From positions 1 through 32,066 of the forward strand of contig CBDCAZ010000001.1 in the NCBI GenBank assembly GCA_965214095.1: DNA of 32,066 bases, given 5' to 3'. Within the stretch, counting starts at the first letter, position 1. The number at the start of each line of letters is the position of its first letter. A program made the translations under genes and the position numbers. Origin of the DNA: Candidatus Poribacteria bacterium (GTDB lineage: Bacteria; Poribacteria; WGA-4E; WGA-3G). The notes beneath the pieces are model-generated. The model was not told the origin of the DNA, ran no database searches, and saw only the letters and a program-made list of their open reading frames with translations. Of the stretch, positions 174 through 28,319 are shown in pieces.

Positions 174-581
174 TCAGGCGGCGAGGTCCATGTCGTATGC
201 TTCCGCGGGCGGCGCCGGCGGCCGGTCCTGCTCCGGCCTGGGGTCGAGGAAGTTGATGGAACCGCGCGGGCCGACCACGATCTCGGTCGTGTAGCGGTCA
301 TTGCCGGCACGGTCCTGCCATTTGCGTGTGCGCAGCTTGCCGGTGATGTGGACCTGGCGGCCCTTCGCGGCGTGCTTGCGCAGCATGGCGACCAGGCCGT
401 CCTGGAAGACGACAATCCGGTGCCACTCCGTGGACTTCTTGTATTCGCCGCTCTGGCGGTCCTTGTAGACCTCGCTGGTGGCGATGGAGAAATTGGCGAC
501 GTCACCGCCGCTCTGCATGGTGCGGAACTCGGGGTCCCCGCCCAGATTGCCGATCAGGTCGACGCGATTGAGGCCGTTCAT
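174..581 (-). CDS. ssb: Single-stranded DNA-binding protein (mobile-element type)
   Basis: MNGLNRVDLIGNLGGDPE...FSIATSE...TEWHRIVVF...GKLRTRKWQD...RYTTEIVV is a canonical SSB OB-fold. Start moved to the ATG at 581, which has a GCAGGGAG RBS upstream. Short tail ends YDMDLAA rather than DDIPF. Confidence 0.96.
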   Translation of the reverse strand: MNGLNRVDLIGNLGGDPEFRTMQSGGDVANFSIATSEVYKDRQSGEYKKSTEWHRIVVFQDGLVAMLRKHAAKGRQVHITGKLRTRKWQDRAGNDRYTTEIVVGPRGSINFLDPRPEQDRPPAPPAEAYDMDLAA

Positions 582-625
582 GGTACTTGCTCCCTGCAAG
601 AGGTTGGTTGCGAGTTGCTCGAACT

Positions 626-669
626 CACCCCGAACAACCCCTTCCCAGCCTTCGCGGCGTGGATGCCGC
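626..669 (-). promoter_or_regulatory. Conserved upstream motif, copy A (before ssb)
   Basis: Plus strand CACCCCGAACAACCCCTTCCCAGCCTTC followed by a GCGGC-N6-GCCGC hairpin; matches the copies at 1076 and 2461. Confidence 0.7.
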
Positions 670-712
670 AAAGGCCGGAGAAGGGGAAGACAGACGGGGA
701 TGCAGGGAGGAC

Positions 713-1015
713 CTATCGCTGCCGCAACATATGACCCCAGACGGCATAGACGCCCCAGTACTGGACGCCGGAGTCCGGCTTCTTCTCGCAGCGGCAGATG
801 AGGATCTCGTTGCGCGCCGGGCGCAGGTCCCGCACCGTGGCCCGCGACAGGGTCAGCGGATGGCCCTTTCGGCCCGGCAGGCGGCGGATGTCGCCGTCGA
901 TGGTGGTGCGGTAGCGCTCGACCACATAGGTCTTGTCCTCGAGGCCGCGCCCGAAGAGGTGGGTGAGGAAGGTATTCGCATCGGGGCGAAGGAAGGAAGC
1001 CGTCATGCCGGTCAT
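713..1015 (-). CDS. Hypothetical protein (100 aa)
   Basis: Part of ORF 713..1198. The ATG at 1015 has a GGAGAT RBS and the same 5' leader as the gene starting at 2396. No family recognised. Confidence 0.7.
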   Translation of the reverse strand: MTGMTASFLRPDANTFLTHLFGRGLEDKTYVVERYRTTIDGDIRRLPGRKGHPLTLSRATVRDLRPARNEILICRCEKKPDSGVQYWGVYAVWGHMLRQR

Positions 1016-1120
1016 GGGGGATATCTCCGCTTGGGGAAGGACGCGGGCGCCGGTCGGACGGCAGACCCGTATCGATACCCCGACAAACCCCTTCCCGACC
1101 TTCAGCAGCGTTGCGGCTGC
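1013..1120 (-). repeat. Conserved upstream leader/motif, copy B
   Basis: CATGGGGGATATCTCC...GCGGG.GCCGGTCGGACGG...ACCCCGACAAACCCCTTCCCGACCTTC aligns with 2394..2487; GCAGC-N6-GCTGC hairpin at 1105-1120. Confidence 0.8.
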
Positions 1121-1151
1121 CGGGGACCGGGAAGGGGGGCGACGGGCCGCG

Positions 1152-2396
1152 CTACCGGCCTGCGGCCATGGGCGCGGCGTCGGTGATGATCTCGACATCG
1201 TCGATCGTGAGCTTGGCGTAGGCCAGCGCGCCCGCGACCTCCATGGGCGTCTCCCAGGTGCCGTGGTCGGTGCCGGTGGCGATCTCGATCACGGTGTAGC
1301 GGGTGGGCAGGTCCGGCATGCCGCGATACTCGTAGCCGCGCTGGCGGTCGAGGCAGGGGCGGCACTCCCGCATGAGGGGTTCCGGGGGCCGCTGGCCGCA
1401 GCGGGGACAGAGGCCGGCCGACTGGCGCTCGCATGTTACGCGGTGGTAACGGCGTCGGGCGCTTGCGAGGCGCGCCTCACGGCACGGGGCGCAGGATCCG
1501 GACTCACCGACCGGGGCGCGCTTTCCGCAATAGACACACATGCCCCGGGCGCGGGCGTCGGCGACCCTGCGGTGCCACCTCGCGCGCTCGCCGGCGCGGT
1601 GGCTGTCCCGGCAGGGCTCGCACGCGGTGAACCCGGCTTCCGGGGGCTCTTTTCCACACCGGATGCAAAGGTCTTGCGTGACGCGGGCGAGGACCCTGCG
1701 GTTGTACCGGTCCAGCCAGACGGCAAGGCAGGCCTCGCAGGCGGTTCGACCGCGAACGGCCGATGCCTGTCCGCAGACCAGGCACAAACCGACGGCGCGG
1801 CGGGCTTCCCGGCGGCGTCTGGCGGCCTCCCTGTCCCGTTTGGCGGTGAGCGGCTGGCAGTCGGCACAGCGGCGGCGTCCCGGGGCGGGGGGCGCCTTGC
1901 CGCATTCGATACAGAGCGACCGGTCGGCCTGCCGGCGCTGGCGCTCGGTGCGGTCGCGATGGGCCTGGCGCCGGGCCTCGAGGCAGTCCTCGCAACTGGT
2001 CTTGCCGTCTGCGGGCCTGTTCTCCCCGCAGCGCAGGCACAGGCCGGCCTTGTGCCGTTCATCACGCAGGCGCTGCTTGCGGGCACGGTTTGCCGCGCGT
2101 TCGTTCTCCCGGCAGGCGTCGCAGCGGCGGGGGCCGGGTTTCGGGATGGCGGTTTGGCAGTCGCGGCAAAGGCCGAGATTGTACAGAAGGAGGCGGCGCT
2201 TGCGTTCCGACTTGCGGGAACTGGCGCGGCGGCGCTCTATGCAGCCGGCGCAGTATTTCGCGCGCTCCGCGGGAACCTTGCCACAATGGCAAAGGCCCTG
2301 CGCGGGAGGCGCGGCGTCGGTGGAAGTGCCGGCGCGGCAGCAATGACAGCCCGCTTCGGCAGGCGGATGCGGATGACAGGGGGCGGAAGCCGGCAT
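1152..2396 (-). CDS. Tandem Cys4 zinc-finger repeat protein (8 repeats, Arg-rich linkers)
   Basis: Eight ~42-aa units of the form (G)LCxxC-x~11-CxxC plus an Arg-rich helix, then a ~55-aa non-repetitive C-terminal domain. GGAGAT RBS upstream. Confidence 0.85.
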   Translation of the reverse strand: MPASAPCHPHPPAEAGCHCCRAGTSTDAAPPAQGLCHCGKVPAERAKYCAGCIERRRASSRKSERKRRLLLYNLGLCRDCQTAIPKPGPRRCDACRENERAANRARKQRLRDERHKAGLCLRCGENRPADGKTSCEDCLEARRQAHRDRTERQRRQADRSLCIECGKAPPAPGRRRCADCQPLTAKRDREAARRRREARRAVGLCLVCGQASAVRGRTACEACLAVWLDRYNRRVLARVTQDLCIRCGKEPPEAGFTACEPCRDSHRAGERARWHRRVADARARGMCVYCGKRAPVGESGSCAPCREARLASARRRYHRVTCERQSAGLCPRCGQRPPEPLMRECRPCLDRQRGYEYRGMPDLPTRYTVIEIATGTDHGTWETPMEVAGALAYAKLTIDDVEIITDAAPMAAGR

Positions 2397-2507
2397 GGGG
2401 GATATCTCCTGCTGGACGAACGGGCGCGGGAGCCGGTCGGACGGGCGTCCCCGCGGAAATCACCCCGACAACCCCTTCCAAACCTTCGGACGGGCCGCGG
2501 CGGCGGC
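2394..2507 (-). repeat. Conserved upstream leader/motif, copy C
   Basis: Aligns with 1013..1103; core CACCCCGACAACCCCTTCCAAACCTTC at 2461-2487; GCCGC/GCGGC stem at 2494-2507. Confidence 0.8.
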
Positions 2508-2949: not shown

Positions 2950-3040
2950 GCGGCCGGGGGTGCCGCGCCTTGTGTCACCGCTTAAATTGCAGGGGGTGCG
3001 CTTTGATTTCGCGGATTGGAGACCTTAACGGTGCTCCCGG
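2950..3040. repeat. ~90-bp direct repeat, copy 1 (oriT candidate)
   Basis: Aligns with 5648..5737; exact 33-bp shared core TTGCAGGGGGTGCGCTTTGATTTCGCGGATTGG (2987-3019). Confidence 0.9.
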
Positions 3041-3044
3041 ATAG

Positions 3045-3253
3045 GCGGACGCGGCGTTTCGCGCCTACTTCGGGCTGGAGCCACCGGCGCAGCAGCAGGA
3101 CCTTGCGGCGCTCACGCCCGGGGGTTTCGCCGTGGTGCGCCGCGAGGCCGAAATCCTGGACCTGCTCGACGAGCCGGAGGAGCTTGCCCGGATGCTCCAC
3201 GAGGAATGCGAGGCAAGCCGGGGCACCCGCAGGTCGTGGGCTTGCGGGCATGA
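3045..3253 (+). pseudogene. C-terminal fragment of an AAA+ ATPase
   Basis: AAFRAYFGLEPP...LTPGGFAVVRREAEIL...LHEECEA, then after a frameshift KPGHPQVVGLRA-stop; resembles the LTPGDFAVV...ECEAK...IGF tail of proteobacterial AAA ATPases. In-frame TAG at 3042 and no N-terminus. Confidence 0.55.
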
Positions 3254-3326
3254 GGTTTGCCGGGCCGGGCGCGCCGGCTATGGTGCTTCCGGCAAAGGCC
3301 GTCGGCAGAGAGGGGGAAGAGTCCGG

Positions 3327-3431
3327 ATGCGCTACGAACGCGCACAGCAGCTTGTCGCTCTGGCAATCCGTCTCCAGGGCTCGCCTTCCGGCCTTACGCC
3401 TGACGATATCCGGTCGGAGCTTTCCGTCTCC
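3327..3431 (+). pseudogene. N-terminal winged-HTH fragment of a WYL-domain (DriD/PafBC-like) regulator
   Basis: MRYERAQQLVALAIRLQGSPSGLTPDDIRSELSVS after a purine-rich RBS; similarity stops where the RTxxR recognition helix should follow. Confidence 0.65.
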
Positions 3432-3704
3432 CCGATCCTTCGGCGCCATTCAAGGTCGGGCGGCACGATGACGTTTCTCTCCTGTTTGCGGCGAGTCGAC
3501 GGCGCGGTGCCTAGCCGAACGGTTCGCGCGCCAGGCATCAGGCCTCTCATCCGAACGATATCAGATCAACAGTATTGTCATGGTCAGGGCGCCAAACGAG
3601 AATGTGGCCAGCCTATCTCGTAGTGTGAACTTGCCACCCACCGTCCCGACAGACCAACGCGGCTGTCGGAACACCGGACGACCGACCAAGGAGACGATGG
3701 CACG

Positions 3705-5402
3705 ATGGAATACATCCCGATACGGGTCAGCGACATTGTGAAACACGTGAACCATGACTGGTATCTTCCGGCAATTCAGCGTGAACTCGAATGGAATACG
3801 GTCAGAATAGAACGTCTCTTCGATTCCATCTTGTCCGATTTCCCCATAGGTTCATTCCTATTTTGGAACTTGGAGGAGAAGAACAAGAGCGAATGGCCTA
3901 TTTATGAATTCATTCGCGACTACGATGAAGACAAGCCTCACAACGTCTTGGCTAACATCCATGGGATTCGGAAGGATCTTACGCTGGTTCTCGATGGGCA
4001 ACAAAGAATTACATCTCTGTATATCGGCCTGATGGGATCTTATCGCTTTTTCTATTATCGTTGGCGTATGACGCGATTATACCTCAATTTGCTCAAGCCA
4101 CCAGTCCCGAATGAAGAAAATCCGGAGGAACTTGCCCACGAGTTCTCGTTTCGCGAGAATGGCCACGCGACCAACGACCTAGAAAAGTTGTGGTATCCAG
4201 TTGGTCGAATACTCGACTTTAACGACGCTGAAGATGCCAAGGCAGATATGAAGCAAACACTGTCCAGATTTCCTGAAGACGCACAGGAAAACGCCAATAA
4301 GCTTATCGGACGACTGCACAATCGTATCCACACCACGTTGATCGGAAACTATTATCTCGAAAAATCCCAAGACTATGACAAGGTTCTACAGATCTTCGTT
4401 CGCTCCAATTCTGCCGGGCAGCCATTGGCGTATTCCGACTTGCTGCTTGCAACGGCAACGGCGAAGTGGGACACCCTTGACGCTCGTAGCGAGATTCACA
4501 ATTTTACCGATTTGCTCAACGAAACCGGTACCGGCTACAAGTTCGGCAAAGATTTTGTGCTAAAGGCCTGCCTCTATCTCTGCGAATCTCTGCCAATACA
4601 GTACAAGGTCAAGAATTTTTCGAAGTCCAACCTCCTGACCATCGAATCCAACTGGGAGTCCATCAAGGATACGCTTGCTGTGACGGTGCGCTTGATTTCC
4701 CGTTTCGGCTTCCAAGCGAAAAACGTCGTGGCACCACTGGCCCTGCTCCCGATTGCCTTTTACCTGCAGAAGCGGGGCGATCCGAACTTCGACAAGTCAT
4801 CGAGCGTCGAAGACGCGGAAGCTCAGATCGCCATTCGAAAATGGTTTGTGTTTGCGACCCTCAAGAATGCATTTGGCGGCTCCTCAGATACGACGTTGAC
4901 ACGTCTTCGCCAGATACTGACGAAAGCTGGTTCGGCATTCCCTGCGGAAGAAATGTACAGATCTCTTCAGATCGAGCCGTCGTTGAGCGACGCGGAAGTG
5001 GATCGGATGTTGGAATATCAATACCAGGGCCGTTACACTAATTTGATTCTGTCGTTGTTGTATCCCGATAGAGACTGGAAAGATGCGGTGTTTCATGAGG
5101 ACCATATATTCCCGCAATCTGAATTCAAGGTAACGTTGTTGAGGGGACGATGTTATGATGATACCAAAATCCAGTCGTATATGTCGCGGTTCAACACGCT
5201 GCCGAACCTTCAGCTTCTGACCGATTCCGAGAATATGTCGAAGGGTGCTACACCTTTCGACAAATGGCTAAAGACCAGGGACGCGAAGTACCGATGTCGC
5301 CATCTAGTCCCGGGTTTGACAGATTATTCTTTCGACAACTTCGAAGAGTTTTTTAACGCCAGACGGCAATTGATAGTGGCGGCACTCAAGGCACTTTCCT
5401 GA
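3705..5402 (+). CDS. DUF262 + C-terminal HNH (DUF1524-like) protein, GmrSD-family putative modification-dependent restriction nuclease
   Basis: LPAIQRE, LFDS..PIGS..W, VLDGQQRITSL and IFVRSNSAG (DUF262/ParB-like NTPase); HEDHIFP...NTLPNLQLL...EN (HNH). Visibly lower GC than the flanks. Confidence 0.88.
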   Translation: MEYIPIRVSDIVKHVNHDWYLPAIQRELEWNTVRIERLFDSILSDFPIGSFLFWNLEEKNKSEWPIYEFIRDYDEDKPHNVLANIHGIRKDLTLVLDGQQRITSLYIGLMGSYRFFYYRWRMTRLYLNLLKPPVPNEENPEELAHEFSFRENGHATNDLEKLWYPVGRILDFNDAEDAKADMKQTLSRFPEDAQENANKLIGRLHNRIHTTLIGNYYLEKSQDYDKVLQIFVRSNSAGQPLAYSDLLLATATAKWDTLDARSEIHNFTDLLNETGTGYKFGKDFVLKACLYLCESLPIQYKVKNFSKSNLLTIESNWESIKDTLAVTVRLISRFGFQAKNVVAPLALLPIAFYLQKRGDPNFDKSSSVEDAEAQIAIRKWFVFATLKNAFGGSSDTTLTRLRQILTKAGSAFPAEEMYRSLQIEPSLSDAEVDRMLEYQYQGRYTNLILSLLYPDRDWKDAVFHEDHIFPQSEFKVTLLRGRCYDDTKIQSYMSRFNTLPNLQLLTDSENMSKGATPFDKWLKTRDAKYRCRHLVPGLTDYSFDNFEEFFNARRQLIVAALKALS

Positions 5403-5647
5403 CACCTCGGTGGCGGCGCGTTCGTCGAGCTAGGTGGATTCGTTAGGCCGCCGCCCCACTCTGGGCTAGCGGTCTTCTCTCGGCAGTGGGAAGCGGGCGG
5501 CAATCATCCGGAAGAAATAGCACGATGCGCGCCCGGTCGGCCCCCTGTAGTAGCCCAAGGTCAATGTGTTGCCGCGTCGATTAGCGCCGAGCCGCACGGG
5601 CAGGACTCGTTGCGGCCCACCTCGTGTCCAAAAGCCGGGAGACCTTC

Positions 5648-5737
5648 GCGGCCGTGGGTGCCGTGCCTCGTGTCGCCGCTTCGTTTGCAGGGGGTGCGCT
5701 TTGATTTCGCGGATTGGGGATCCTATGGTGCTCCCGG
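5648..5737. repeat. ~90-bp direct repeat, copy 2 (oriT candidate, upstream of MobC-like gene)
   Basis: Exact 33-bp core at 5685-5717; lies ~85 bp before the RHH relaxosome-type gene. Confidence 0.9.
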
Positions 5738-5822
5738 GGATTGGCCGGGGAGGCCGTGGCTGACAACGGGACTATCCCCGGGGGGCGCGACGTGACCATG
5801 GATACGCCATGGATGATGCCCC

Positions 5823-6197
5823 ATGGCGGCACCGGGAAACGCGCGTTCTGTCACCGTGTTCCCCGGGAGGAGGAACGGTTTGGCCGGGGATGATGGCAGG
5901 AAGAGGCCGCGCTCGGTGATGGCGACCGACAGCGAGTGGCGCCTCGTGCGCGACCGGGCGGCAAAGGCGGGGCTGTCGGCTTCGGAGTTCCTGCTGTCGC
6001 GCGGGCTTGCGCCTGCGGAGCCGGCGGTCGGGGGTGGCGGGCTGCCGCCCGCGGCGCAGCGGCGCCTTGCGGTCGATCTGCGCCTTCTGGCGCTGGCGGA
6101 GCGCCTGCGGCTGGCGCAGGAGGGCCGGGAGGGCGTCTGGCGCCGTCTGGTGGAGGAAGCGGAAGCCTCGGTGGCCGATGACGAGAGGGAGGGCTGA
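5823..6197 (+). CDS. Ribbon-helix-helix relaxosome accessory protein (MobC/NikA-like)
   Basis: RPRSVMATDSEWRLVRDRAAKAGLSASEFLLSRGL is an RHH mobilisation-protein pattern, and the gene lies near a relaxase. Start codon uncertain. Confidence 0.72.
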   Translation: MAAPGNARSVTVFPGRRNGLAGDDGRKRPRSVMATDSEWRLVRDRAAKAGLSASEFLLSRGLAPAEPAVGGGGLPPAAQRRLAVDLRLLALAERLRLAQEGREGVWRRLVEEAEASVADDEREG

Positions 6198-6203: not shown

Positions 6204-6207
6204 CGGC

Positions 6208-6372
6208 CACAAGGTCGTCCTGCACGAGATGATCGTGGCGGAGACGCAGTGCTGCGAGCAGGTGGCGCGACTGGATCAGGCAATCGAAGGCGCTCTCCTC
6301 GACTGGCCACTCGCGCCGGTGATGGAGCCCCTTCAAGCGCTGCGCGGAGTCAGACTCATCGCTGCGGTTACC
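6208..6372 (+). pseudogene. IS110-family transposase internal fragment
   Basis: HKVVLHEMIVAE...VARLDQAIEGALLDWPLAPVMEPLQALRGVRLIAAVT resembles the coiled-coil/HhH linker region of IS110 transposases. Confidence 0.7.
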
Positions 6373-6389
6373 GGTGACGCCGTGAGACC

Positions 6390-6587
6390 AGCATTGAGGA
6401 TGCGTTCGATCTCCGTCCGCCCTTCGCGTCCCATGCGCTGCCGCTCGGCGAGACCTTGCCGCTCGTCAGCAAAGTGCTCGGGCACGGCGATATCGAGACG
6501 ATGGCACGCTACGCCAATCTGGCGCTGGGCTCGATCCATGCAATGGTCGGGCGCGTTACCGAGGGCATTGCGGTAGATATACTGTAG
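6390..6587 (+). pseudogene. Tyrosine recombinase/integrase C-terminal fragment, degenerate
   Basis: Not in the ORF track. FDLRPPFASHAL..GETLPLVSKVLGHGDIETMARYANL...DIL-stop is a decayed HDLRH(S/T)FAS...LGH...T.RY box II. Confidence 0.85.
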
Positions 6588-6687
6588 GCGACACCACATC
6601 GCTCGGAGAGCCAAGTATTGCCAGGCTCCACAATCCCTCACAAACGGATAGTGCAGAAACAACCACTCACAACGACCGGAGACCTTA

Positions 6688-7914
6688 TTGCGCCTGAACC
6701 TTTCGTTTGAACCCGATCTCTTCGTGGCCCAACTGGGTCACGAAATAGCCGCAGGTGGCCTGACAGTCGTCGATGCAGTTGAGAGGTTTCTCTCAGATTG
6801 GCTGGAGAATGCCATCACCGGATGCCTCGGCGATAGAATCGTCAAGGCTCCCAACTCAATTGTGAATCCTACATACTACGTCAATCGATTCCAAAACCTT
6901 GCCGCACTCAGTCATGCCGGATATTCCACTTGGTATCCGGAAGTGCGTTTTTCCACGGGCAAGGGTGATGATGTAGACATTACTCAGTTGAGTGCGTCTG
7001 GCATTGAGCTCCGTAGCATTAGGTATGGCGGCGACGTTGAACGCCATTACGCCCACAAAATGAAGGAACTCAAGACGCAAGTAAACCATTCAATTCGTCT
7101 AAACGAAGTAAGAATATCTCCGGATCTCTTCATTCAAGTTATACAGGTATTGGCAAATCACCGTAAACTTTCGCAACCCCATATAGCCAACTTAACTGTG
7201 GGCATCGAACGATTTGTCGACGACAGAATTGAAGGATTCAGGACGGTCGCCTTTGACCATGTCGTTACCGGCGAGCGGCACTTCTGTTCATGCCACTCTG
7301 ACGCGCATGAGGCAATGCTCATGGATGCCAGAGAACGGCTTCCAAGTTTTGTCTCGGGTTCCTGGCCACATCGCGTCGTTTCTTTGCTTCAAGGCGCTCG
7401 ATATACGGACGACATTTGCCATTTCTGCGTTGCAGAACAGCACGGGAAGAACGCTCACGTAGAATGGTACGGCAGTCAGATTCGAAAGCATTATCAACCA
7501 TATGTTGATCTGCTTGTTCGCGGTAAGGTCATGGATCGCCGAACAGCGCGCGCAGAAACGATGCGTCGTCTTTCGATCAGCCGGTGGGTACGCGAGGACG
7601 AGCTATACGCAGTAATTCACAAGCTCTTTCCTGACCGTAAGATTCGCCGTGAGGCTTCCCCAACTTGGCTGGGTCAGCAGCGCCTGGACATCTATCTTCC
7701 CGAACTTGCCCTTGCGATCGAACACCAGGGAGAACAACACTTCTTTCCCATTGAAGCGTTTGGCGGACAAAGCGCATTGGAGAAGACGCGGGAGCGCGAC
7801 CGGCGCAAACGGGCACTGTGCAATGAGAACGGCGTTACGGTCATTGATGTGCGTTTCGATGACCCGATAACGACATCTAGTCTTAGAAGCCGCCTTAAGC
7901 GCTGGCTCTGCTGA
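6688..7914 (+). CDS. Unknown N-terminal region + Cys/His Zn-binding cluster + C-terminal Vsr/DUF559-like PD-(D/E)XK endonuclease
   Basis: TTG start with GGAG RBS; HFCSCH...CHFC; WLGQQRLDIYLPELALAIEHQGEQHF...RDRRKRALC. Lower GC than the flanks. Confidence 0.78.
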   Translation: MRLNLSFEPDLFVAQLGHEIAAGGLTVVDAVERFLSDWLENAITGCLGDRIVKAPNSIVNPTYYVNRFQNLAALSHAGYSTWYPEVRFSTGKGDDVDITQLSASGIELRSIRYGGDVERHYAHKMKELKTQVNHSIRLNEVRISPDLFIQVIQVLANHRKLSQPHIANLTVGIERFVDDRIEGFRTVAFDHVVTGERHFCSCHSDAHEAMLMDARERLPSFVSGSWPHRVVSLLQGARYTDDICHFCVAEQHGKNAHVEWYGSQIRKHYQPYVDLLVRGKVMDRRTARAETMRRLSISRWVREDELYAVIHKLFPDRKIRREASPTWLGQQRLDIYLPELALAIEHQGEQHFFPIEAFGGQSALEKTRERDRRKRALCNENGVTVIDVRFDDPITTSSLRSRLKRWLC

Positions 7915-7918
7915 AGTA

Positions 7919-7998
7919 GCCGTGAGGGCGTCTGGCGCCGTCTGGTGGAGGAAGCGGAAGCCTCGGTGGCCGATGACGAGAGGGAAGGCTGAGCGGCC
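7919..7998. repeat. 80-bp direct repeat, copy 2 (orphan copy of the MobC-like 3' end)
   Basis: 78 of 80 identical to 6124..6203; begins 4 bp after the stop of ORF 6688..7914. Confidence 0.95.
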
Positions 7999-8058: not shown

Positions 8059-11000
8059 TCAGTATGAGAGGCCGTATCCCCTGGTGAGTTCCTGGCGCCG
8101 CGCGTAGACCTCGCCCATGTGCCGCCAGCATTCCCCGGAGAGGTTCTCGAAGCTCCGGGCGAGGTCGGCGGGCAGGGCCTGTGCCAGCCCGGACAGGGAG
8201 AGCCTGTCGTCGGGATCGATGGCCTCGCGGATATGGTGGCGGAAAGCGGCAAGGGTCTCTTCGGGCCAGGCGCGGTTCCTGCGGGCGAGTTCGACCAGCG
8301 CGTCACGGTCGCGGTCGTCTTCGGGCCTTGTGACGGCGCACATCAGCATGTCGAGGCGGCCGGGGTCGTGGCGCTGGTCGCCGGCGGCGAACGCGCCGGC
8401 GTCCGGCAGTTCGATCCGGCGGGGCCCCGCCTCGGGATCGCGCGCGGCGCGGCGGATCGCCTCGATCTCGGCAACGAGGTCGGCCATGTCGATCCAGCGG
8501 CGGTCGACATGGTCGCTCTGGGTGGGGTTGCCGGAGGCGCGCCAGTTCCGGAAGGTCTTGACGAACTGCTCGGCCCGGACGTCCCACCTGCGGTAATCCG
8601 GATCGACGTCGTTGAGGGCCCGGGGCGGGGGTTCGGGCGCCGGGGGGATGTCGTCTTCGGCCCGGAACAGCCCGAGGGCGCGGCCGATGAGCCCCGGACG
8701 GGCGGCCTCCTCCTCCGGGGCGGGCGGTTCCGGGGCAAGGGCGCGGTCGAGAATGGCGGGATATGTCTCCAGATGGGCCCGGGCCCGCCTGATTGCGTTC
8801 CGGATCGTGTCGCGGACACGGATTTCGCTGTCGATCACGGCCTGGAACTGCTCAAGGTAGCGGCGGTCCCTGTCGGAGAGCCCGGGGGTTGCGAGCAGCC
8901 GCGCGGCCTCGGCGCGCAGCGGCTCGATGCCGGGCTGGTAGATGATGGCGCTCTCGCCGGCGGCGGCGTCGGCCTCGTCAACGGCATCGCGGATGCGCCG
9001 GCAGCCGCGGGCAGCCTCCGCCTCCCGCTGCGCCCCGGCCCTGCCGGCGGCCGCCTTCGCCTCCTCCCGCAGCGTCTGGCCCGCGCCCTCCATGAGCGCC
9101 TCCGCCGCTTCCGCCGCCGCACGCCATGCCGCCGCATCCTGCGGGACGGCCATCCGGATCTGCGCTTCCAGATCGTCCAGCGCCCGCAGCGTGCCTCTTG
9201 TCGTCACCGCCCGTTCCCGGTGCCGCTCCGCCCGGTCGCGCCATTCGGCCGCCGCCCGGGGAGACCCGTCTTCCAGGGCATCCGCGACCGTCCCGGCGAT
9301 GGCGGACGCGCCGCCATGCGCCGACATCCGCTGCTGCCGCAGTTGCCGCCATGCCTGCACATCCGCCACAGTCAGTGGCGCCATCTCCCGCTCCGCTCGC
9401 GCCGCCTCGGAGATCCGGCGCCCGACCAGCCTGTAGATCCAGCGTTGCACCTCCACATCGAGCGCCCGTTGCCGCGCCCGGGCGTCGCGCGCCACCGCCG
9501 CCTCGCCCGCCACCAGCGCCCTGTCGGCCAGAACGCCGAAGGCCATCGCCGCCTCCCGGGCGGCCGCGCCATGGCGCTCTATAGAGGCCGTGTCGATATC
9601 CCTGTCGGAGAGGGCCCCGGCAGGCGCCAGACGCTCCGAGGCCGCGTCCGCCGCCGCCAGCGCCACGTTCAGAATACGGTAGGCCCGAAGCCGCGCCTGC
9701 ATCCCGGATCCGTTCGTCCTCGCCGCCCCGATACCGTCCCCGTCGGGCGCATGGCCGGCGGCAGCCGCCGCTTCCGTGAACGCCTCGGCGACGGCGGCCG
9801 CCGCGTCCCGCACCCGTTCGACCGCTGCCATCCGCGCCCGCAGCGCCTGCCTGTCCTCCAGCCCGCCCGCCGGCAGGGCGGCGAAGGCGCGTTCGGCCTC
9901 CTCCGCACGGGCCCGCGCCGACGAAAGCGCCGCCTCCGCCTCCACCAGCCGGTGCCGGGCCTCCCCCTGGTACCGCCGATCCGCCCGCAGGCCGTCCAGG
10001 AACTGAGCCGCTATCTCCGCGCGGATGGTGGATTTCGCCGGGACCGCCGTGTCCACCTCGCCGATCGCCTCCAGCGCCGTCAGCCGCGCGCCCGTGTTCG
10101 CCTCCAGCGTCTCCACAAGCTGCTCGCGATTGTCGGTCAGCACCACAGCCTGCTCGCGCGCCCGGCCCAGCTGCACATAGAGCGTCTGCTGGTTCACCAG
10201 CGGCCCGGCGCCCGTGTCCAGCACCGCGATCACCCGGTCATGCGTCTGCCCCTGCGCCGCATGCACCGTGGAGGCATAGGCGTAGGCCAGGTGGCGCAGC
10301 TGCGGGTCGTTCCGCGCGAAGCTCAACTCCCGCCCGTCGGGGAGCCCCATCCACAGCACCCCCTTGCCGATCTCCAGCACGTCGGCCCGGTCGCCATTGG
10401 CAAGGCCGCGCTCCCGGTCGTTGCGGGTCCAGCGCAGCCGCTCGCCTTCCCTGATCCGCAGCGTCTTCGCCTCGAACAGGTCGAGCCGGTAGCGCAGCTC
10501 GCTGCCCGGCTTCAGGTGGCGCGGCCGGCCGTCATCATGGGCAAGCCTGACACGGTCCTCCTCCACCGCCATCACCGTGCAGGCATCGTCCCTGGCGATG
10601 CGGTAATGCTTCATGTCGCGGTTGAAGAGCGCGATATCGCCCTCGCGCCAGTTGCGGGGATCGCCGGTCTCGGCGCGTGTGAGGTTGAGCGGCACCAGGG
10701 TCTCGATCTCCATGGCGCGCCCGCGCAAGGCTCCCTCGGCCTCAAGACCCTCGCGCACCGCCTCCTCGACCCCGGCCCTGAGCGCGCGCGTCGGCACCAG
10801 CAGCGCCGTTGCCGCCCGCGCCTCCGCCGAGAGCCTGAGCCAGAGACCGGCCGCCACACCCGCGATCTCCTCGGCCGGGACTTCCTGCAGATTGCCCCCC
10901 AGATGCGCGAGCGCCGCGCCCGGCTCGCCCTCGATCATCTCCGCGACCGCCGCCCTCAGGTCCGGATCGCGCTGCCGGCGCAACTCGTCCATCTCCACAA

Positions 11001-12783
11001 CGCCCATGCCCGCCTGCTGCATCTGCCGGAAGGGCTGGCCCGCCTCCACGCCCCGCAACTGCCGCTTGTCGCCCACAAGCACGAGGCGCGCCACCTCCAG
11101 ACGCTCCGCAATCCTGAGCAGCGACCGCGCCTGCGCCGTGCCCGCCAGCGACATCTCGTCGACTACCACCACCGCGCCGCCATAGCGTTCTTTCAGGCGA
11201 GCGAGCGTCTCGGCATCCGCGACCCCGTCCGCCACCTCCCGGCAGCGTGTGAGGAACCATTGCAGCGTCCGGCAGGCGAGGCCCGTCTCGCGCGAGAGCG
11301 TCCGCGCCGCAGACGCCGACGGCGCCAGGCCCAGCACAGGCCGCCCGCCCAGGCACGACACGGCCCGGCGCAGCATGACCGTCTTGCCGCTGCCCGCATG
11401 GCCCTGTACGCCCAGCACCCGGTCGCGGCTCTCCAGGATCGAGCGCACCGCCTCGCGCTGGCCTTCGCTCAACCCCGCCAGCGCCTCTTCCGGAACGGCA
11501 TGCGCCGCGAGTGGGCGCACCGCGCCGATGCCGGCCTTCATGCGGGCCAGAACCTCGCGCTCGGCCTTCACCGCCCGCGCCGTCGTCCACGCCGCGCCCA
11601 CCCCGCGCCGGATCGCCGGCAGCAGATGCCTGTCACGCTGCAGTTCGGCAAAGGCGCCCTCGATCTCCTCCAGACGGTAAAGCCCCGGCCTGTGCGCCAG
11701 AGCCAGCGCCAGCGCCTCCCTCTCCGGGAACACGCTCGCCCGCTCCTCCAGCTGCTCCAGAACCCGCCAGGCGATCTCCAGCGCCGTCGGCGGCTCCGGG
11801 TGGCGCGCGCCGATCTTCCTGAGCGTCCGCTTGGCGAGACCGCGCTCCTCCGCGAAATCCCGCCACAGCGCCTCCAGCTCCGCACGCCGCGGCTCGTTCT
11901 TGCGCGCCCTTGTGGCCAGCGTCGCCATCTGCGCCGTGCGCGCATCGTAGCGCCAGCCCTTCTCCCGGATGAAGTCGAGGATCTGCCGCCGCCGGCTCGA
12001 GAACGCCTCCAGAGCCGCCCGCGGCCAGCCCGATATCTCGAACCCCGGCACACGCCCGATCATCGACGGCCTGAGCGCGAACCCCGCCTTCCTCAGCCCG
12101 TGCGCCAGTTCGTTGCGGTAGAAGGCCCCGACCAGCTTCTCCGACCGGCGCAGCAGGCCGATCTCGGCACTCCGCCACTGTCCGCCATCGCGGGTCATGT
12201 TGGCGATCACGCAATGGGTGTGAAGCTGCGGGTCGTTGTTGCGGCTGGTGATGTGCCGGAAGGTTGCCGCCACCAGCATGGGTGCGTTCACCTGCACCGA
12301 GCGCCGCTCCTCCGGGCTCCAGCGCCGCGTCCGCAAGAGCCGCGTCTCGATGAACGCCAGCGTCGCGCGCACCGCCGCGTCATGCGCGCGCATCGCCCGC
12401 GCGGAGCCCGGACCGCCGAGCAGCGCCTCCAGCGATACCGACTTCGGCGCCGACAGCGTGATGTCCACACCCGGGCGGTGCTCGTGTTCACCGTCGCGCA
12501 GCCGCCCCAGGCGAATGTCCGTGCCCGGCACATGGCCCTGAAGCACGCGGCGGAACTCTCCCGGCTCCACATGGCCGCTCAGCCCCAGCGCCGCCGCCCC
12601 GCTGCCCCGCCACCGGCTCGCCTTGCGGTGCTCGTCATCGCGGCGGGCGTAATAGTCCTCGCGCTCATTAGCCTGCCCCGGGCTCGATCCGGGGGTCGCC
12701 GGCGCGCCCAGCCCGTGGCCCTCGCGGCGGAAATAATGCACCGTCGAGGAGGCCGAGGTGAGGCTGACCACCGTCGCTACCAT
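8059..12783 (-). CDS. trwC: MOBF conjugative relaxase-helicase (TrwC/TraI family) with long C-terminal extension
   Basis: N-terminal YF...DYY, DITLSAPKSVS, HITSRNNDPQLHTH (HUH), FSSRR; RecD-like helicase motifs GHAGSGKT, VVVDEMS, LVGDKRQL, YASTVHAAQGQT, LYVQLGRAR. Confidence 0.95.
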   Translation of the reverse strand: MVATVVSLTSASSTVHYFRREGHGLGAPATPGSSPGQANEREDYYARRDDEHRKASRWRGSGAAALGLSGHVEPGEFRRVLQGHVPGTDIRLGRLRDGEHEHRPGVDITLSAPKSVSLEALLGGPGSARAMRAHDAAVRATLAFIETRLLRTRRWSPEERRSVQVNAPMLVAATFRHITSRNNDPQLHTHCVIANMTRDGGQWRSAEIGLLRRSEKLVGAFYRNELAHGLRKAGFALRPSMIGRVPGFEISGWPRAALEAFSSRRRQILDFIREKGWRYDARTAQMATLATRARKNEPRRAELEALWRDFAEERGLAKRTLRKIGARHPEPPTALEIAWRVLEQLEERASVFPEREALALALAHRPGLYRLEEIEGAFAELQRDRHLLPAIRRGVGAAWTTARAVKAEREVLARMKAGIGAVRPLAAHAVPEEALAGLSEGQREAVRSILESRDRVLGVQGHAGSGKTVMLRRAVSCLGGRPVLGLAPSASAARTLSRETGLACRTLQWFLTRCREVADGVADAETLARLKERYGGAVVVVDEMSLAGTAQARSLLRIAERLEVARLVLVGDKRQLRGVEAGQPFRQMQQAGMGVVEMDELRRQRDPDLRAAVAEMIEGEPGAALAHLGGNLQEVPAEEIAGVAAGLWLRLSAEARAATALLVPTRALRAGVEEAVREGLEAEGALRGRAMEIETLVPLNLTRAETGDPRNWREGDIALFNRDMKHYRIARDDACTVMAVEEDRVRLAHDDGRPRHLKPGSELRYRLDLFEAKTLRIREGERLRWTRNDRERGLANGDRADVLEIGKGVLWMGLPDGRELSFARNDPQLRHLAYAYASTVHAAQGQTHDRVIAVLDTGAGPLVNQQTLYVQLGRAREQAVVLTDNREQLVETLEANTGARLTALEAIGEVDTAVPAKSTIRAEIAAQFLDGLRADRRYQGEARHRLVEAEAALSSARARAEEAERAFAALPAGGLEDRQALRARMAAVERVRDAAAAVAEAFTEAAAAAGHAPDGDGIGAARTNGSGMQARLRAYRILNVALAAADAASERLAPAGALSDRDIDTASIERHGAAAREAAMAFGVLADRALVAGEAAVARDARARQRALDVEVQRWIYRLVGRRISEAARAEREMAPLTVADVQAWRQLRQQRMSAHGGASAIAGTVADALEDGSPRAAAEWRDRAERHRERAVTTRGTLRALDDLEAQIRMAVPQDAAAWRAAAEAAEALMEGAGQTLREEAKAAAGRAGAQREAEAARGCRRIRDAVDEADAAAGESAIIYQPGIEPLRAEAARLLATPGLSDRDRRYLEQFQAVIDSEIRVRDTIRNAIRRARAHLETYPAILDRALAPEPPAPEEEAARPGLIGRALGLFRAEDDIPPAPEPPPRALNDVDPDYRRWDVRAEQFVKTFRNWRASGNPTQSDHVDRRWIDMADLVAEIEAIRRAARDPEAGPRRIELPDAGAFAAGDQRHDPGRLDMLMCAVTRPEDDRDRDALVELARRNRAWPEETLAAFRHHIREAIDPDDRLSLSGLAQALPADLARSFENLSGECWRHMGEVYARRQELTRGYGLSY

Positions 12784-13076: not shown

Positions 13077-16000
13077 ATGGCTACAATTAAGCCGAGCCGA
13101 GCCGAGCCGAGCCGAGCCGAGCCGCTCTTCCTGCGTCTTCATGGTGGCGCCGCCTAGGGCGCTCCGCCTCCCGGCCTGAGCTTTCTTCCGCTAGCGGGCG
13201 TTCCGACAGCCGCCGGCCCGCTTCCTCCTCCGACAGCTTCGCTCCCTCTCCCACCCGCGCCGCCGCGGGCGTTGGTCCTACCGTTCGCCGTCCCCGGCGC
13301 GGCCTGCTGCCCGCCCTGTTTGTCCTGCCGCTGCTCCTCGGGCTGGCAACCGAAGCCGCAGCGCAGAGCCAGAGCGTGCCGACGCTCAAGGTCGAGATAC
13401 CGACCGTCACCGAAGGCGAGACCGGCACCATCAAGCTCACCCTGAGCCAGGAGTCGAGCCAGTCGATAGATACTCAGGTTAGCGCCTTCTCTATAGTTTG
13501 CGGCAGTGGCGTTACCTGCCCGCAAGGCACGACCGCAGCGGGCGCCAGCGACTATTCCTTAACCAGCGTGACGATAACCTTCGCTCCTAGCGAGACGACC
13601 AAGACCGTCTCCTTCACCACGACCGACGACAGCACGTCCGAGTCGACCGAGGTGTTCCAGCTTGCGGTTACCGGTCTCGCTGCCTCCGAAGCCACCATCG
13701 ACCCCAGCACGCCGGCAGACGGCCAAGGTTTTGGACAACCATACTGGTTAGTCCGCATCCAGGACAACGACAATCCGGGGAACCCGAACGTCACGATTAC
13801 CCCCGGCACGTCGCCGGTGACGGAGGGGACGGCTGCGACCTTCACGGTGACGGCGACGCCGGCGCCCACTGCGGCGACGACGGTCTCGGTGGCGGTGACG
13901 GAGGAGACGAGCGGCAGCCAGGATTTCGTGGCTTCGAGCAACGAGACCACGCACACGGTGACCATTCCGGCGTCGGGAAGCCCGAACGCGGGCACGGCCA
14001 CGCTCACCATCCCGACGGTGGGCGACACCAACCAGGAGCCGCATGGCGCGGTGACGGCGGCGGTGAACACCGGCACCGGCTATACGGTGGGCAATCCGTC
14101 ATCGGCGACCGTGACGGTGCTGGACGACGACGGCACGTCGGCGCCTCCGGAGGTGTCAGTGCGGTTGATGACCGGCGAGGGCGAGAACCGCAACTCCGAC
14201 GGCGAGGTGGAGAAGCCCGAGTCCGACGGCACGGTGTCGTTCCCTCTATCGCTGGACGCGCAACCGTCGGCGGCGCTGACAGTGTGCGTCCGAGTGACCG
14301 AGTCGGGCGATGTCGACCGGGTCGCATTGGCCGATGAAGGTATCAAGACGGTGAGTTTCAACTCCGGCGTGCAGACGGGGTCAATCGACGTGGCGTGGAC
14401 CGACACAGATGCGGACGACCTGGACAGCGTCATCACCGTTACGGCAGTCCCGTCCAACACCGTGGGCTGCAGCAGCACGGACGTGTACACGGTGTCGAGC
14501 ACCACCGGCTCAGACAAGGTGAAGGTCTCGGATGACGAAGTGACCGCATTGTCGTTGGCTTCTTCGGACACGGAGATGGGTGAAGGCGACGCTTCGAACA
14601 CGGCGGTGATAACGGTGTCTCTGGGTCGTGCGCTGATCAGCGGTGAGTCGGTGGTGGCGCCGATCACGCTCGCTACCGACAACGGCGCACGACTGCCCGG
14701 CCACGCGACACCGGACTTTGCGGTGGCCGCAATGGGCACCGGCGTGGCGCTGAGCAACGCGACGTCCGCGACGCCCCGACTGACGTTCACCGGCTCCGAC
14801 TCAAGCACCGTGCAGGAAGCGACGGTGACGCTGACTCCAGTGGCGAACCGGGACGACGGTGACACGGACAATGAGACGATCACCGCAACGCTTTCCCTGC
14901 TGACCGGCACGGGTTCGGGCACTGTGGTGACCGGCGGCGGCGTGGCAGTCGTACAGGCATCTTCGGTGGCGACCCTGACGCTGGAGGACGACGAGGCCGC
15001 GCCGCCGGCGTGCCCTGCCCAGAACAACAGCCTCAGCGTTGGCAGCATTCGCATTCTCGAAAACGGCGAAACGACCTATTGCGTGCGGCTTCCCACCGCG
15101 CCTTCCGGTGGCAACACCACCGTCACCATCGGCAAGGCGGGCAGATATCAGGGGGCCGCGAACGCAAGCACAACAACACTCACCTTCACGGCATCGAACT
15201 ACATGAACCCGCAGCCGGTAACGGTGACCGGCGTGGACCAGCCGAACCTCCATCTCAACCGCACACTGTCATTGACCCACGCGGCCAACGGCGGCGGCTA
15301 CTCGAACCAGGGACTGGGCTGGGTTTCGGTGACGGTGGACGACGCGCCCGAGCTTGAGGTGTTTGATCTGGCGGTAATGAACGCCAATGACTACGCTGCC
15401 AAACAGCGCCCGAACACCGTCAAGGCGACGCGGGGGTTCAGGTATTTCCAGAATGACATGGTGCCAATTCTGCCGCTGCGTTACCTGCTGCGCCTGTCGA
15501 ACCGCCCGGCGACCGGCGAAACGGTGACGGTGACGGCAACATCGAGCGACTTCGCCAAGTTCGGCCTGTCTCGGACCCCGGGCGGCACGCCGCAGCCGTC
15601 GCTGACGGTGACCTTCGAGGACCGCGATGCCGACCGGGTCTGTTTCAATGGGGGTCACGGCTCTCCTGATGGAGCTAACACGCCGAACCCGGACATGTCC
15701 TGGGCGTGCAATCGCCGGATCTGGGTCATCAGCACGCAGAATGACAAAGCGACCTACCGGAAGGGCTGTGCCGACATCACCCACACGGCCTCGGGCGGCG
15801 GCCTGCGCGGCACGGCTATCGGGACGATCCGCGCCCACGCCGTTGCTGCCGGCAACCACCGTGCCCCCTCCAACGCCCCGGGCCGCGGATGCGCCCTCAT
15901 CACCAGCGAACTGCGCGGCCGCTCCGCACCCGCCCTTGCCGCCCCGGCGCCCACCGAGGCAGTCTCCAACCTGCAGGTGACGGCGGTGGACGACACCAGC

Positions 16001-19000: not shown

Positions 19001-19168
19001 ATGGGGCTGGGGCTCGCCACCGGCGCACGCGACTACAGCATCGGCTGGAGACTGACGCCCTCGAAGAATGCGCCTGATGTCTCTTTCGGCATCCGGGCAA
19101 CCCGCAGGGAAAGCGACGCGGCCGCACCGGAGCATACCCTCGGGCTCGAAATCAACACGCGGTGGTGA
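13077..19168 (+). CDS. Large secreted/outer-membrane adhesin-like protein (Calx-beta/Ig-like repeats, FN3-like domain, C-terminal autotransporter-like beta-barrel); frameshifted at the (AGCCG)7 tract
   Basis: ORF 13376..19168 has VTEG...TVTVLDDD Calx-beta-type repeats, an FN3-like NLQVTAV..SVTWDAVEHATSYDVSW segment, and an amphipathic beta C-terminus ending in Trp. The frame stays open back to 13091 and encodes a signal peptide (RRPRRGLLPALFVLPLLLGLATEAAA/QS), but the ATGs with an RBS (13077, 12984) are in another frame. Confidence 0.85.
13090..13124 (+). repeat. Pentanucleotide microsatellite (AGCCG)7, putative phase-variation tract
   Basis: Seven perfect AGCCG units starting 13 nt after the first base of ATG 13077. 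Confidence 0.97.
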
Positions 19169-20927: not shown

Positions 20928-21923
20928 CTATTCCCGGCCAGCCTCCGGGAGTCGAACCTTCTCGACCAGGAAGCGTTTGATCCGGTCGAGTACGGCATCA
21001 AGCTTATCGCCACCTGCATTAACCTTGTGCAAATCGCTCAGAGCGTCGACCGCTTCCCGTTCGTTGAGGCTCGGGAAATGCTCCGCGAAGGTTGCTGGGC
21101 TGACTTCAAAATACAACTGGCCGCCGTTGTCGCCGGCCGAGGGGTACGCGTAGATCAGCATCTTCGTGCCTTTGTCCGGCGGCGCGATCGTTACCGATAA
21201 CTTGTTAGGCTTTACCCGGAGACCAGCCGCTTCCGCGATGCTCACAAAGCGGTCGAACTGCTCGCCCACATCCGCGTCTACGGCCCGGCGACGGACCGCT
21301 TCGACTGAGAATTGGCGAGGGGGAGATGATGGCCTGGTCGGTTCGTCGACCACCTCACGGATCAACAGCTGCGGGCCGCCATCCAACTCGAACACCTCGA
21401 AGCTGACGACACCGATCGGGACAGCGAAGCGGCCGAGAAACTCGTTCATTCGCTCCAGGCCGGGGTGGATCCCGGCACCGACAAGCAGCACCGCAATCTC
21501 GCGCCCCTCCTCTTCAGTCCGCAACTGCCGGTTCAGTCTTTCCGACAGTTGTACAGCGTCGCCGAATTTACAGAGGCCGGGTTCCAGCTTCTTCTTGAGT
21601 TCTTCGCCGTCGAGACGCGCAATCGAAGAGGCATAGTAGAGCCCCTGTGTCAGCGCGCCGGAGTCGAGTGTCCCGGATTTGATCTCGATCACCACCCAGC
21701 GATCCTGAGTGTCGATGGCCAGCAAATCGAGGATCCCGTCGTCGATCCTTACCTGCCGGCCGACCAGTGTCAGTCCTTCTCCGATCAGCGTCACATCGTT
21801 CACAATCCAGTCTTCGAGGTGCTTCTCCAGTCCGACGTGGGAGCGCTCGACCTTCCTCGGTGCCGACTGCCGCGCGGCATGCTCGTCGCGCTGTCGGTCT
21901 ATGGTCCACGCCGCCAATTTCAC
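20928..21923 (-). CDS. NucS/EndoMS-like (DUF91) PD-(D/E)XK endonuclease-domain protein
   Basis: LEKHLEDWI...LVGRQV...ILDLLAID...VVIEIKSG...ALTQGLYYA (E-x-K plus QxxxY). GTG start with GAGGGGAGG RBS. Confidence 0.82.
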   Translation of the reverse strand: MKLAAWTIDRQRDEHAARQSAPRKVERSHVGLEKHLEDWIVNDVTLIGEGLTLVGRQVRIDDGILDLLAIDTQDRWVVIEIKSGTLDSGALTQGLYYASSIARLDGEELKKKLEPGLCKFGDAVQLSERLNRQLRTEEEGREIAVLLVGAGIHPGLERMNEFLGRFAVPIGVVSFEVFELDGGPQLLIREVVDEPTRPSSPPRQFSVEAVRRRAVDADVGEQFDRFVSIAEAAGLRVKPNKLSVTIAPPDKGTKMLIYAYPSAGDNGGQLYFEVSPATFAEHFPSLNEREAVDALSDLHKVNAGGDKLDAVLDRIKRFLVEKVRLPEAGRE

Positions 21924-22421
21924 AACCGCAGCCTCCCCTCAACGCTCTTCCGTCGAATACAAACGTTGCAGTACGACTACAACATCCGCTCCACCCTGGT
22001 CGATGCGCAGGCTGTCGCAAGGCAGCATGCGAAGCGTCGGTAGCCCGGGAAGTCCTGCGCAGCGTAGTCCGGCTTCTGTGCTTCCCCGATTTCCTGCTGT
22101 GCCGGGAGGCGAAGGCCAGCCCTGCTTGCTGGCGGGCCGGAACCCGCATTCAATCTCGGCGATACTCCGAGCGGCTCTTCGGGAAGTTGCCATGCCTCCC
22201 CCTTATCGCACCCATGCAGGACCGGTATGCTGCGCTTGAGGGACCAGTCTGGACTGCCGGGGGCGGGATCTTGCAAGGGGCGTGGCATGAAAAGCGTCGG
22301 GGAACCATGAGCAAGGCCTTTTTCGACGGGCCTGTCGAAAATTCTTCGAAACCCTGCCTCTCGCGCATATCCCTCGTCTGGATGATCGCGCCGTCATGGC
22401 CGGCGACAGAATGGAGCGGGC

Positions 22422-22665: not shown

Positions 22666-22738
22666 TACTAGGCCGGCGAAGCCCGTGTCGAGGATATCCC
22701 TCATCTCGATTGCGACGCTTGATGACGAACCGTGGCGA

Positions 22739-28303: not shown

Positions 28304-28319
28304 AAGGCAAGCGTGAACC

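Follow-up and report, generated by a model that had tools for sequence, protein, structure and literature searches.

A tandem Cys4 zinc-repeat protein with a conserved acidic C-terminal domain, encoded with c2 and ssb in relaxase-bearing elements of uncultured bacteria

What role does a protein built from tandem Cys4 repeats play in a bacterial mobile element that also encodes a single-stranded DNA-binding protein (SSB)? The question is raised by a gene at positions 1152..2396 (minus strand) of a 32,066 nucleotide (nt) stretch of DNA from a Candidatus Poribacteria bacterium (assembly GCA_965214095.1, contig CBDCAZ010000001.1, positions 1 to 32,066), referred to here as the window. The gene encodes a zinc-repeat protein of 414 amino acids (aa) plus the stop codon, designated ZnF. 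Long Cys4 arrays are rare in bacteria, and ZnF represents a family that lacks annotation, with c2 as its fixed partner gene and a fixed SSB/primase context. It appears to belong to the core, and not the cargo, of integrated relaxase-bearing elements and probably handles the DNA of the element. A first-pass annotation, made from the DNA letters alone, had proposed a modular rod that coats or reads incoming transferred DNA, or acts in anti-defence, together with SSB. That interpretation is partly upheld: the modular array, the tie to mobile elements and the linkage to ssb are supported, but sequence reading and the rod shape are not. Two points go beyond it, the partner gene c2 and a constraint that appears to lie on the C-terminal domain (CTD) rather than on the array.

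ZnF is a real coding gene, neither a chance reading frame nor an antisense artefact. The G+C fraction at third codon positions (GC3) is 0.83 in the ZnF frame versus 0.72 in a competing 658 aa open reading frame (ORF) on the opposite strand, and the codon-position pattern agrees, with about half of the differences from four close copies falling at third codon positions of ZnF. The protein can be aligned with 27 homologues. Across 27 family members of 35–65% identity, 16 Cys columns, equal to four units, are invariant.

Three segments make up the protein, all encoded on the minus strand. The N-terminal 33 aa (2298..2396) are Cys/His-rich with 4 Cys and are predicted to be disordered, with a predicted local distance difference test score (pLDDT) below 50 at aa 1–32. 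The repeat region, aa 34–356 (1329..2297), consists of eight units, each a Cys4 knuckle with an Arg-rich helix. The acidic CTD, aa 357–414 (1155..1328), shows a beta-beta-alpha-beta arrangement and varies least within the family. Each of the eight motif pairs that the first-pass annotation quotes is present in the translation, but only seven are exact. A pattern scan gives seven CxxC-x11-CxxC units, with starts at aa 77, 120, 162, 205, 244, 287 and 330; unit 1 (aa 36–52) is degenerate, its first knuckle being C-H-C (CxC) and not CxxC. In a homologue 58% identical to ZnF (P0002), a Cys is missing from the second knuckle of this same unit. ZnF contains 37 Cys and 72 Arg in all.

An AlphaFold2 (AF2) model of ZnF, built with the 27-member alignment, has a mean pLDDT of 81.9. 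It places 20–25 residue helices after units 1–7, as had been described from the sequence, and a beta-beta-alpha-beta domain at aa 367–405. How the units are placed relative to one another is uncertain, as the predicted template modelling score (pTM) is only 0.39, and the model lends no support to a rod. The repeat region carries a net charge of +42 with an isoelectric point (pI) of 10.1. The C-terminal 58 aa carry a net charge of −5 with a pI of 4.35, in agreement with the small acidic domain noted earlier. Pairwise identity between the units averages 35% (range 24–48%), and Tandem Repeats Finder detects no DNA repeat in the gene. The array is thus old, and the earlier remark that the units do not stem from a recent DNA duplication holds.

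Which part of the protein is under constraint? Between the window and a related locus, L009, identity is 84% in the CTD, 78% in c2, 74% in ssb and 36% in the repeats; conservation across loci is highest in the CTD and lowest in the repeat array. Among the four closest copies (loci L001–L004) the ratio of nonsynonymous to synonymous rates (omega) is 0.40–0.45 for the repeats and 0–0.16 for the CTD. Synonymous divergence (dS) from L001–L004 is about 0.20 in the repeats (window positions 1329–2297) and 2–7-fold lower, 0.03–0.13, in the CTD, c2 and ssb. The raised dS suggests recombination or mosaicism within the array. Omega exceeds 1 nowhere; thus the array is under a relaxed constraint that preserves composition, possibly with recombination, and positive selection is not demonstrated. 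No other part of the protein evolves as fast as the array, which retains only the Cys/Arg pattern and is therefore unlikely to read DNA in a sequence-specific manner, as had been suggested. Judged from these alignments, the constrained part of ZnF is the CTD and not the array. A slow CTD against a fast, length-variable array gives a testable prediction as to which part carries specificity.

What accompanies ZnF elsewhere? A scan of species-representative genomes matched 53 stretches, 37 of which encode a relative, and these reduce to 35 distinct loci in 20 assemblies. All 20 are uncultured genomes, mostly Alphaproteobacteria, together with one of Gammaproteobacteria, one of Nitrospinota and several whose only label is 'bacterium'. 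A chromosome can hold as many as 4 ZnF copies, and in several assemblies the entire module recurs in 2–4 dispersed copies. For the window and the 35 loci, ORFs of 60 aa or more in all six frames were clustered, the clusters were named by Pfam, and neighbours were counted within 10 kb on either side. The c2 gene is present at 33 of the 35 loci (19 of the 20 assemblies), ssb at 30 and a primase-like gene with DUF7146 and Toprim_3 domains at 26. Less frequent neighbours are YAcAr/SLOG genes (16/35), a tyrosine integrase (13/35), a NikA-like gene (at least 13/35), a TrwC relaxase (11/35), a large serine recombinase (10/35) and DUF4326 (9/35). For the NikA-like gene the figure is a minimum, as Pfam alone revealed the copy in L001. 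A mobility marker of at least one kind, that is a relaxase, NikA-like gene, recombinase or primase, occurs at 34 of the 35 loci, which bears out the link of homologues to mobile elements expected from the first pass. The sole exception is L024, where the contig ends 0.7 kb past the ZnF gene.

The commonest gene order, all on one strand, is c2, ZnF, ssb, Toprim, DUF4326, YAcAr and NikA-like; in the clade of the window, c2 comes after ZnF. The ssb linkage is kept even where ZnF identity falls to about 35%. Three loci carry two ZnF paralogues in tandem with c2 between them: L005 (2724–3902 and approximately 4714–5793), L007 (8370–9365 and 9914–11152) and L008 (9989–11230 and 11787–12974). At related loci ZnF is co-directional with a primase-like gene of the conjugative Toprim type, near a NikA-like gene and a TrwC relaxase.

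The backbone of the window itself has the order ssb, c2, ZnF, NikA-like and TrwC. The first three genes are all on the minus strand, with c2 and then ssb downstream of ZnF, while the NikA-like and TrwC genes lie upstream; c2 separates ZnF from ssb, so the description of ZnF as lying beside ssb is right in linkage but not in strict adjacency. The c2 gene (713..1015, minus strand) encodes a conserved protein of about 100 aa that belongs to no known family. The adjacency of c2 and ZnF is recorded independently by the NCBI locus tags OXL41_08400 and OXL41_08405. The ssb gene (174..581, minus strand) encodes a 135 aa SSB (Pfam SSB, E = 1.4e-29; also recognized by NCBIfam), most likely starting from the ATG at 581 rather than the TTG at 671. 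The NikA-like relaxosome accessory gene (5823..6197, plus strand) matches its Pfam family with E = 2.9e-5, which is under the cut-off, and the gene is also present in L001. The TrwC-type relaxase-helicase lies at 8059..12783 on the minus strand (Pfam TrwC, E = 2.3e-73; AAA_30, E = 2.9e-46). The L001 backbone is 90–96% identical to that of the window, and positions 3040–5648 are an insertion that is absent from L001. From their gene content, the elements that carry ZnF are taken to be integrated and relaxase-bearing; they are most likely mobilizable or conjugative islands of TrwC/MOBF type in uncultured Proteobacteria and a few other phyla.

Homologues of c2 form 129 clusters of about 100–110 aa, unnamed or 'hypothetical', all from environmental assemblies, and a tblastn search did not find c2 on PLSDB plasmids. 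The AF2 model of c2 is beta-rich (pLDDT 78.7, pTM 0.69). A fold search with it against the PDB gives no match (best E = 0.049, TM 0.28), and the ESM atlas gives no usable one. A predicted complex of c2 with the ZnF core, that is the last unit plus the CTD, scores 0.01 against a mark of 0.32, in a prediction run without controls, and so speaks neither for binding nor against it.

What kind of module is repeated in ZnF? A structural search of the viral library BFVD gives 11 matches to ZnF at E ≤ 0.001, consisting of small phage knuckle-helix proteins and of HNH/Endo VII endonucleases encoded by giant viruses and actinophages. Locally, the best of these superposes with a target-normalised TM of 0.86 and an rmsd of 1.8 Å over 92 columns at 37% identity. 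In the ESM atlas the top match (0.92) is probably ZnF's own cluster, and phage 'double zinc ribbon' clusters follow at 0.85–0.87, as leads only. Sequence and profile searches of the PDB with ZnF return only sub-threshold zinc ribbons. The phage tandem 'double zinc ribbon' proteins (DZR_2/DZR-like; BFVD A0A8S5SEH9, A0A8S5SE21, A0A8S5SE27 and A0A8S5SE92) resemble ZnF in the repeated Cys4 knuckle plus helix and in being encoded by mobile genetic elements. They differ from it in being much shorter (93–287 aa), and their names are automatic, as is the 'CTCF' label on one BFVD match. ZnF displays the paired CxxC...CxxC knuckles that are a feature of DZR-like proteins but gives no Pfam DZR match at E ≤ 1 and stays below the DZR_2/DZR gathering cut-off of 27 bits; two family members score 26.1 bits (P0026) and 17.4 bits (P0030) with DZR_2. 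A further likeness is to the ribosomal proteins eL37 and bL32, which combine a CxxC...CxxC ribbon with an Arg/Lys-rich RNA-binding extension. The matches are weak (E = 0.003–0.05, below significance), and these proteins have a single unit and an unrelated context, so the likeness is an analogy only.

Arrays of the knuckle-helix fold also form the N-terminal arms of HNH or Endo VII endonucleases in phages and giant viruses (BFVD ranks 9, 14, 16–18 and 22), and the N-terminus of an HNH endonuclease in the PDB (4h9d) matches ZnF with E = 0.017. Within the family, P0029 carries ZnF-type units followed by an HNH-like tail (phrog_589, E = 7.2e-4) and is the only member with an HNH match. Could ZnF then be what is left of a homing HNH endonuclease, a DNA-binding arm that has lost its nuclease and has little present function? 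The frameshifts seen in many ORFs of the family would fit such decay, as would the structural matches and P0029. It is nevertheless very improbable. The CTD is under strong purifying selection, with the omega of 0–0.16 given above, and is conserved across phyla alongside fixed neighbours, and the window protein has no HNH motif. The HNH catalytic domain is absent from ZnF by Pfam and PHROGs, and unlike the HNH endonucleases ZnF has no nuclease domain and ends in the conserved acidic beta-beta-alpha-beta domain. Structural models thus cast the ZnF unit as a probable zinc-ribbon-helix module of mobile elements, which elsewhere flanks nucleases. Nucleic-acid binding by ZnF is predicted mainly, and indirectly, because kindred modules flank nucleases elsewhere. 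We infer such binding from composition together with the likeness to phage zinc-ribbon proteins and HNH arms.

It is proposed that ZnF serves integrated mobilizable elements as a core factor in DNA processing or establishment, through non-specific nucleic-acid binding by the basic array and docking of a partner by the CTD. This is a tentative reading, to which we give somewhat less than an even chance. The array would bind without sequence specificity, most plausibly to the single-stranded DNA (ssDNA) made during transfer, and the CTD would dock a conserved partner, for which c2, SSB, the Toprim primase or a host protein are candidates. With the strand bound by the array and the partner docked by the CTD, ZnF would therefore act with SSB, and usually with the primase, so that the transferred strand is protected or processed and the element becomes established. 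We infer the metal binding as well as the nucleic-acid binding, the CTD partner and the donor or recipient stage at which ZnF would act. A parallel is offered by VirE2 and VirE1 of Agrobacterium, an ssDNA-coating protein and a small partner encoded upstream, to which ZnF and c2 may be analogous; there is no homology between the pairs, and c2 is basic (pI 10.2) whereas VirE1 is acidic. If ZnF binds the transferred strand, it would represent a new class beside SSB, PsiB, ArdC and the primases, the small set known to act on conjugative ssDNA, and would offer a handle on the establishment of relaxase-only islands.

Several observations weigh against this proposal. A whole-chain fold search with ZnF against the PDB gives no match at E ≤ 0.001, the best being HORMA2 (E = 0.2, TM 0.10). 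There is no characterised homologue of ZnF, and every structural analogue is itself uncharacterised. The metal could presumably be iron, as CxxCG knuckles resemble those of rubredoxin. The family was not found by tblastn among 72,556 PLSDB plasmids. Many family matches are frameshifted or chimeric, so some copies may be decaying. No type IV secretion system (T4SS) gene is seen among 23 ORFs scanned in the window, nor any T4SS component among 100 ORFs scanned from 7 loci, and thus the relaxase is the sole pointer to transfer. The 100 were taken from 134 ORFs given by a frame-plot caller, the other 34 being ZnF, c2, neighbours already scanned and some short ORFs. Finally, ZnF, c2 and ssb are divergent from the NikA-like gene in the window and co-directional with it in most loci.

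Would ZnF act instead on the host? SSB genes are typical of plasmid leading regions, where they are paired with anti-defence genes in the orientation of the transferred strand (T-strand), according to the available text of PMC11541004. The leading-region genes PsiB, ArdA, ArdC and KlcA resemble ZnF in their position near ssb and the relaxase region of a transferable element, a concept likewise taken from that text; in sequence and in fold, ZnF is unlike all four. A host-interference or anti-defence factor would use the array as a tether to incoming ssDNA and the CTD to block a conserved host protein, for example in an ssDNA-triggered response, by analogy with PsiB. The psiB gene adjoins ssb on F-like plasmids. 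Such a role would account for the ssb linkage at 30 of the 35 loci and for a CTD that is highly conserved over Alphaproteobacteria, Gammaproteobacteria and Nitrospinota while the array evolves fast. However, no known anti-defence or defence model is matched (Pfam, PADLOC), and an arms race is not demonstrated by an omega below 1 throughout. The orientation of the ZnF set relative to the NikA-like gene also differs between the window and most loci. This explanation is considered unlikely.

The Toprim gene found at 26 of the 35 loci raises another question, that of a role in priming. DnaG primases need a zinc-binding domain, and in the five Toprim proteins inspected the CxxC/H motif pair is lacking in all. 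The array might thus supply in trans a zinc or template-binding function missing from the neighbouring zinc-less Toprim primase. Toprim_2/3/4 proteins are active DnaG-like primases of conjugative elements, and those with Toprim_3, the type found here, are included among them in the available text of PMC5512222. According to the same text, TraC1 and SogL pass into the recipient, where they prime replication. Against a role as primase accessory, a Toprim gene is missing within 10 kb at 9 of the 35 loci, among them the closest relatives of the window (L001–L004). DUF7146 plus Toprim proteins are also widespread without a ZnF partner, and no fused ZnF-primase form was found, which is a weak negative. 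The primase-accessory role is accordingly regarded as improbable. A related and more elaborate scheme, built on the establishment factor favoured here, would unite the ZnF array, c2 and the SSB of the element in a new establishment complex on the transferred strand, with the array as a length-tunable, non-specific binder of ssDNA and the CTD recruiting the zinc-less Toprim primase or blocking a host ssDNA sensor. It is offered as a long shot. If true, the complex would take over functions that in known plasmids fall to PsiB-type or ArdC-type proteins, or to primases with a zinc domain of their own.

Is ZnF a regulator of its own module? The intergenic sequences of the window contain a repeated motif, GGAAGGGGTT(N)GTCGGG, which precedes ZnF, c2 and ssb. 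With up to 3 mismatches there are 6 matches versus 0.49 expected, and none of 100 shuffles reaches 6. The copies lie on the minus strand upstream of the ZnF gene (2442..2486), within a hairpin segment between the ZnF stop codon and the c2 start (1059..1146, inverted repeat 1079–1109/1116–1146), and within another between the c2 stop codon and the ssb start (608..700). CCGTCCGACCGG and GGAGATATCCCCC-ATG are common to the ZnF and c2 copies. By nhmmer, 68 copies are found, only in the window, L001–L010 and L029, with 3–9 per locus and all on the coding strand.

A multi-finger ZnF that binds this motif before each gene would be a transcriptional regulator of the module. The placement of the motif before all three genes, its 3–9 coding-strand copies per locus in the clade of the window, and the co-directional array headed by c2 and ZnF in most loci are consistent with this. 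Against it, two of the three copies in the window, those of c2 and ssb, form the 3′ arm of a long hairpin, which is placed directly behind the stop codon of the preceding gene and has a short T-run after it; they thus resemble a terminator or stabiliser. The hairpin of the ssb copy has DNA fold z scores of −4.8 and −3.8, a stability that none of 200 shuffles reaches; in the copy before ZnF the 5′ arm is missing. RNA folds of the motif leaders are no more stable than shuffles (z = +0.63, −0.66 and −0.99), and Rfam holds no family for the motif (one match, E = 0.26). The motif is found by nhmmer in none of 24 more distant loci, and an array of 1–8 units with poorly conserved sequence fits poorly with a sequence-specific reader. 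A regulatory role is therefore judged to be distinctly unlikely.

How large is the family, and is it known? A word search among 5.8 billion clusters finds 28 related clusters, unnamed or annotated 'hypothetical protein', with lengths of 269, 339, 382, 413–420 and 463 aa, which correspond to 4–8 units. Natural forms of 111–112 aa with a single unit and the CTD occur among the related loci. The family thus spans 1–8 units per protein, with the last unit and the CTD always present. Run against 1.84 billion representatives, a core profile of the last unit plus CTD retrieves 308 clusters at E ≤ 0.001; the number falls to 138 at E ≤ 1e-10 and to 34 at E ≤ 1e-30, and by these counts the family appears to be rare. 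Four matches in which the CTD seemed fused to a DDE transposase (P0035), a Sno helicase C-terminus (P0104), RepC (P0027) or an integrase (P0034) were rejected, as their N-terminal domains are truncated. Many other core-profile matches contain out-of-frame text, and the apparent fusions are read as probable read-through or frameshift chimeras and not as true architectures. No longer fused form of ZnF was found, which is a weak negative.

ZnF belongs to no Pfam, NCBIfam, PADLOC or PDB family, in line with the first-pass view of a modular array, and has no full-length match to a characterised family. The best Pfam match is only DUF7569 (E = 0.15), NCBIfam yields nothing, and PHROGs yield nothing below E = 0.059. 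Neither ZnF nor c2 matches a PADLOC defence model at E ≤ 0.001. In phage genomes there is a single weak match to ZnF, to the unannotated record MT835745.1 (E = 6e-4, 19% coverage). ZnF is not a C2H2 array of the CTCF type: the ligands are Cys4, and PDB matches to CTCF/ZBTB have a probability of 0.01. There is no Pfam match at E ≤ 1 to the DksA/TraR C4 zinc finger (PF01258), and none to the DnaG-type zf-CHC2, the ZnF ligands being Cys4 with x11 spacing. A narrow literature search found no paper tying tandem zinc ribbons to conjugative ssDNA or leading regions, and the family may be published. The word 'zinc' does not occur in the available main text of PMC11541004, nor 'zinc ribbon' or 'ZnR' in that of PMC5512222. 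ZnF represents an undescribed family, built from a known kind of module and found in a known kind of context.

Some further features of the backbone genes were seen. The window-clade SSB has a non-canonical tail (...EAYDMDLAA, ...EAYEDFSA), while the usual (D/E)IPF tip is found on the SSBs of more distant loci. At 1574 aa, the TrwC relaxase-helicase extends past its Pfam domains, which end near aa 881 and leave about 690 C-terminal residues with no family match; the homologue in L035 is 986 aa. The inserted segment 3040–5648, between the ZnF and NikA-like genes, carries a GmrSD-type gene (3705–5402; PADLOC HEC-05, E = 1.3e-182) with a low G+C content of about 50%, and is flanked by a 78 nt direct repeat (2950–3027 and 5648–5725) with 87% identity. 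A second segment absent from L001, at approximately 6206–7919, has a G+C content of 53% and a 408 aa ORF (6688–7914, plus strand) that gives no Pfam or PADLOC match.

The remainder of the window consists of cargo, that is a giant Calx-beta protein and a run of candidate defence genes. An opposite-strand ORF of 1288 aa (15269–19135) has no family match and is probably a high-GC artefact. It overlaps the Calx-beta ORF (13376–19168, plus strand), which encodes 1930 aa and lies within the element. The candidate defence run spans 20928–32065. It ends in an open-ended 713 aa ORF with no match, preceded by a DUF2357 protein gene (28320–29939), and begins with a NucS_C/PDC-S11-like gene (20928–21923), followed by a superfamily 1 (SF1) helicase gene with MkoA-like matches (22685–25708) and a PDC-M26A-like gene (26213–28303). 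The flanks of the 7 scanned loci likewise contain insertion sequence (IS) elements and defence cargo, e.g. a XamI restriction-modification system and a DruA-like fragment.

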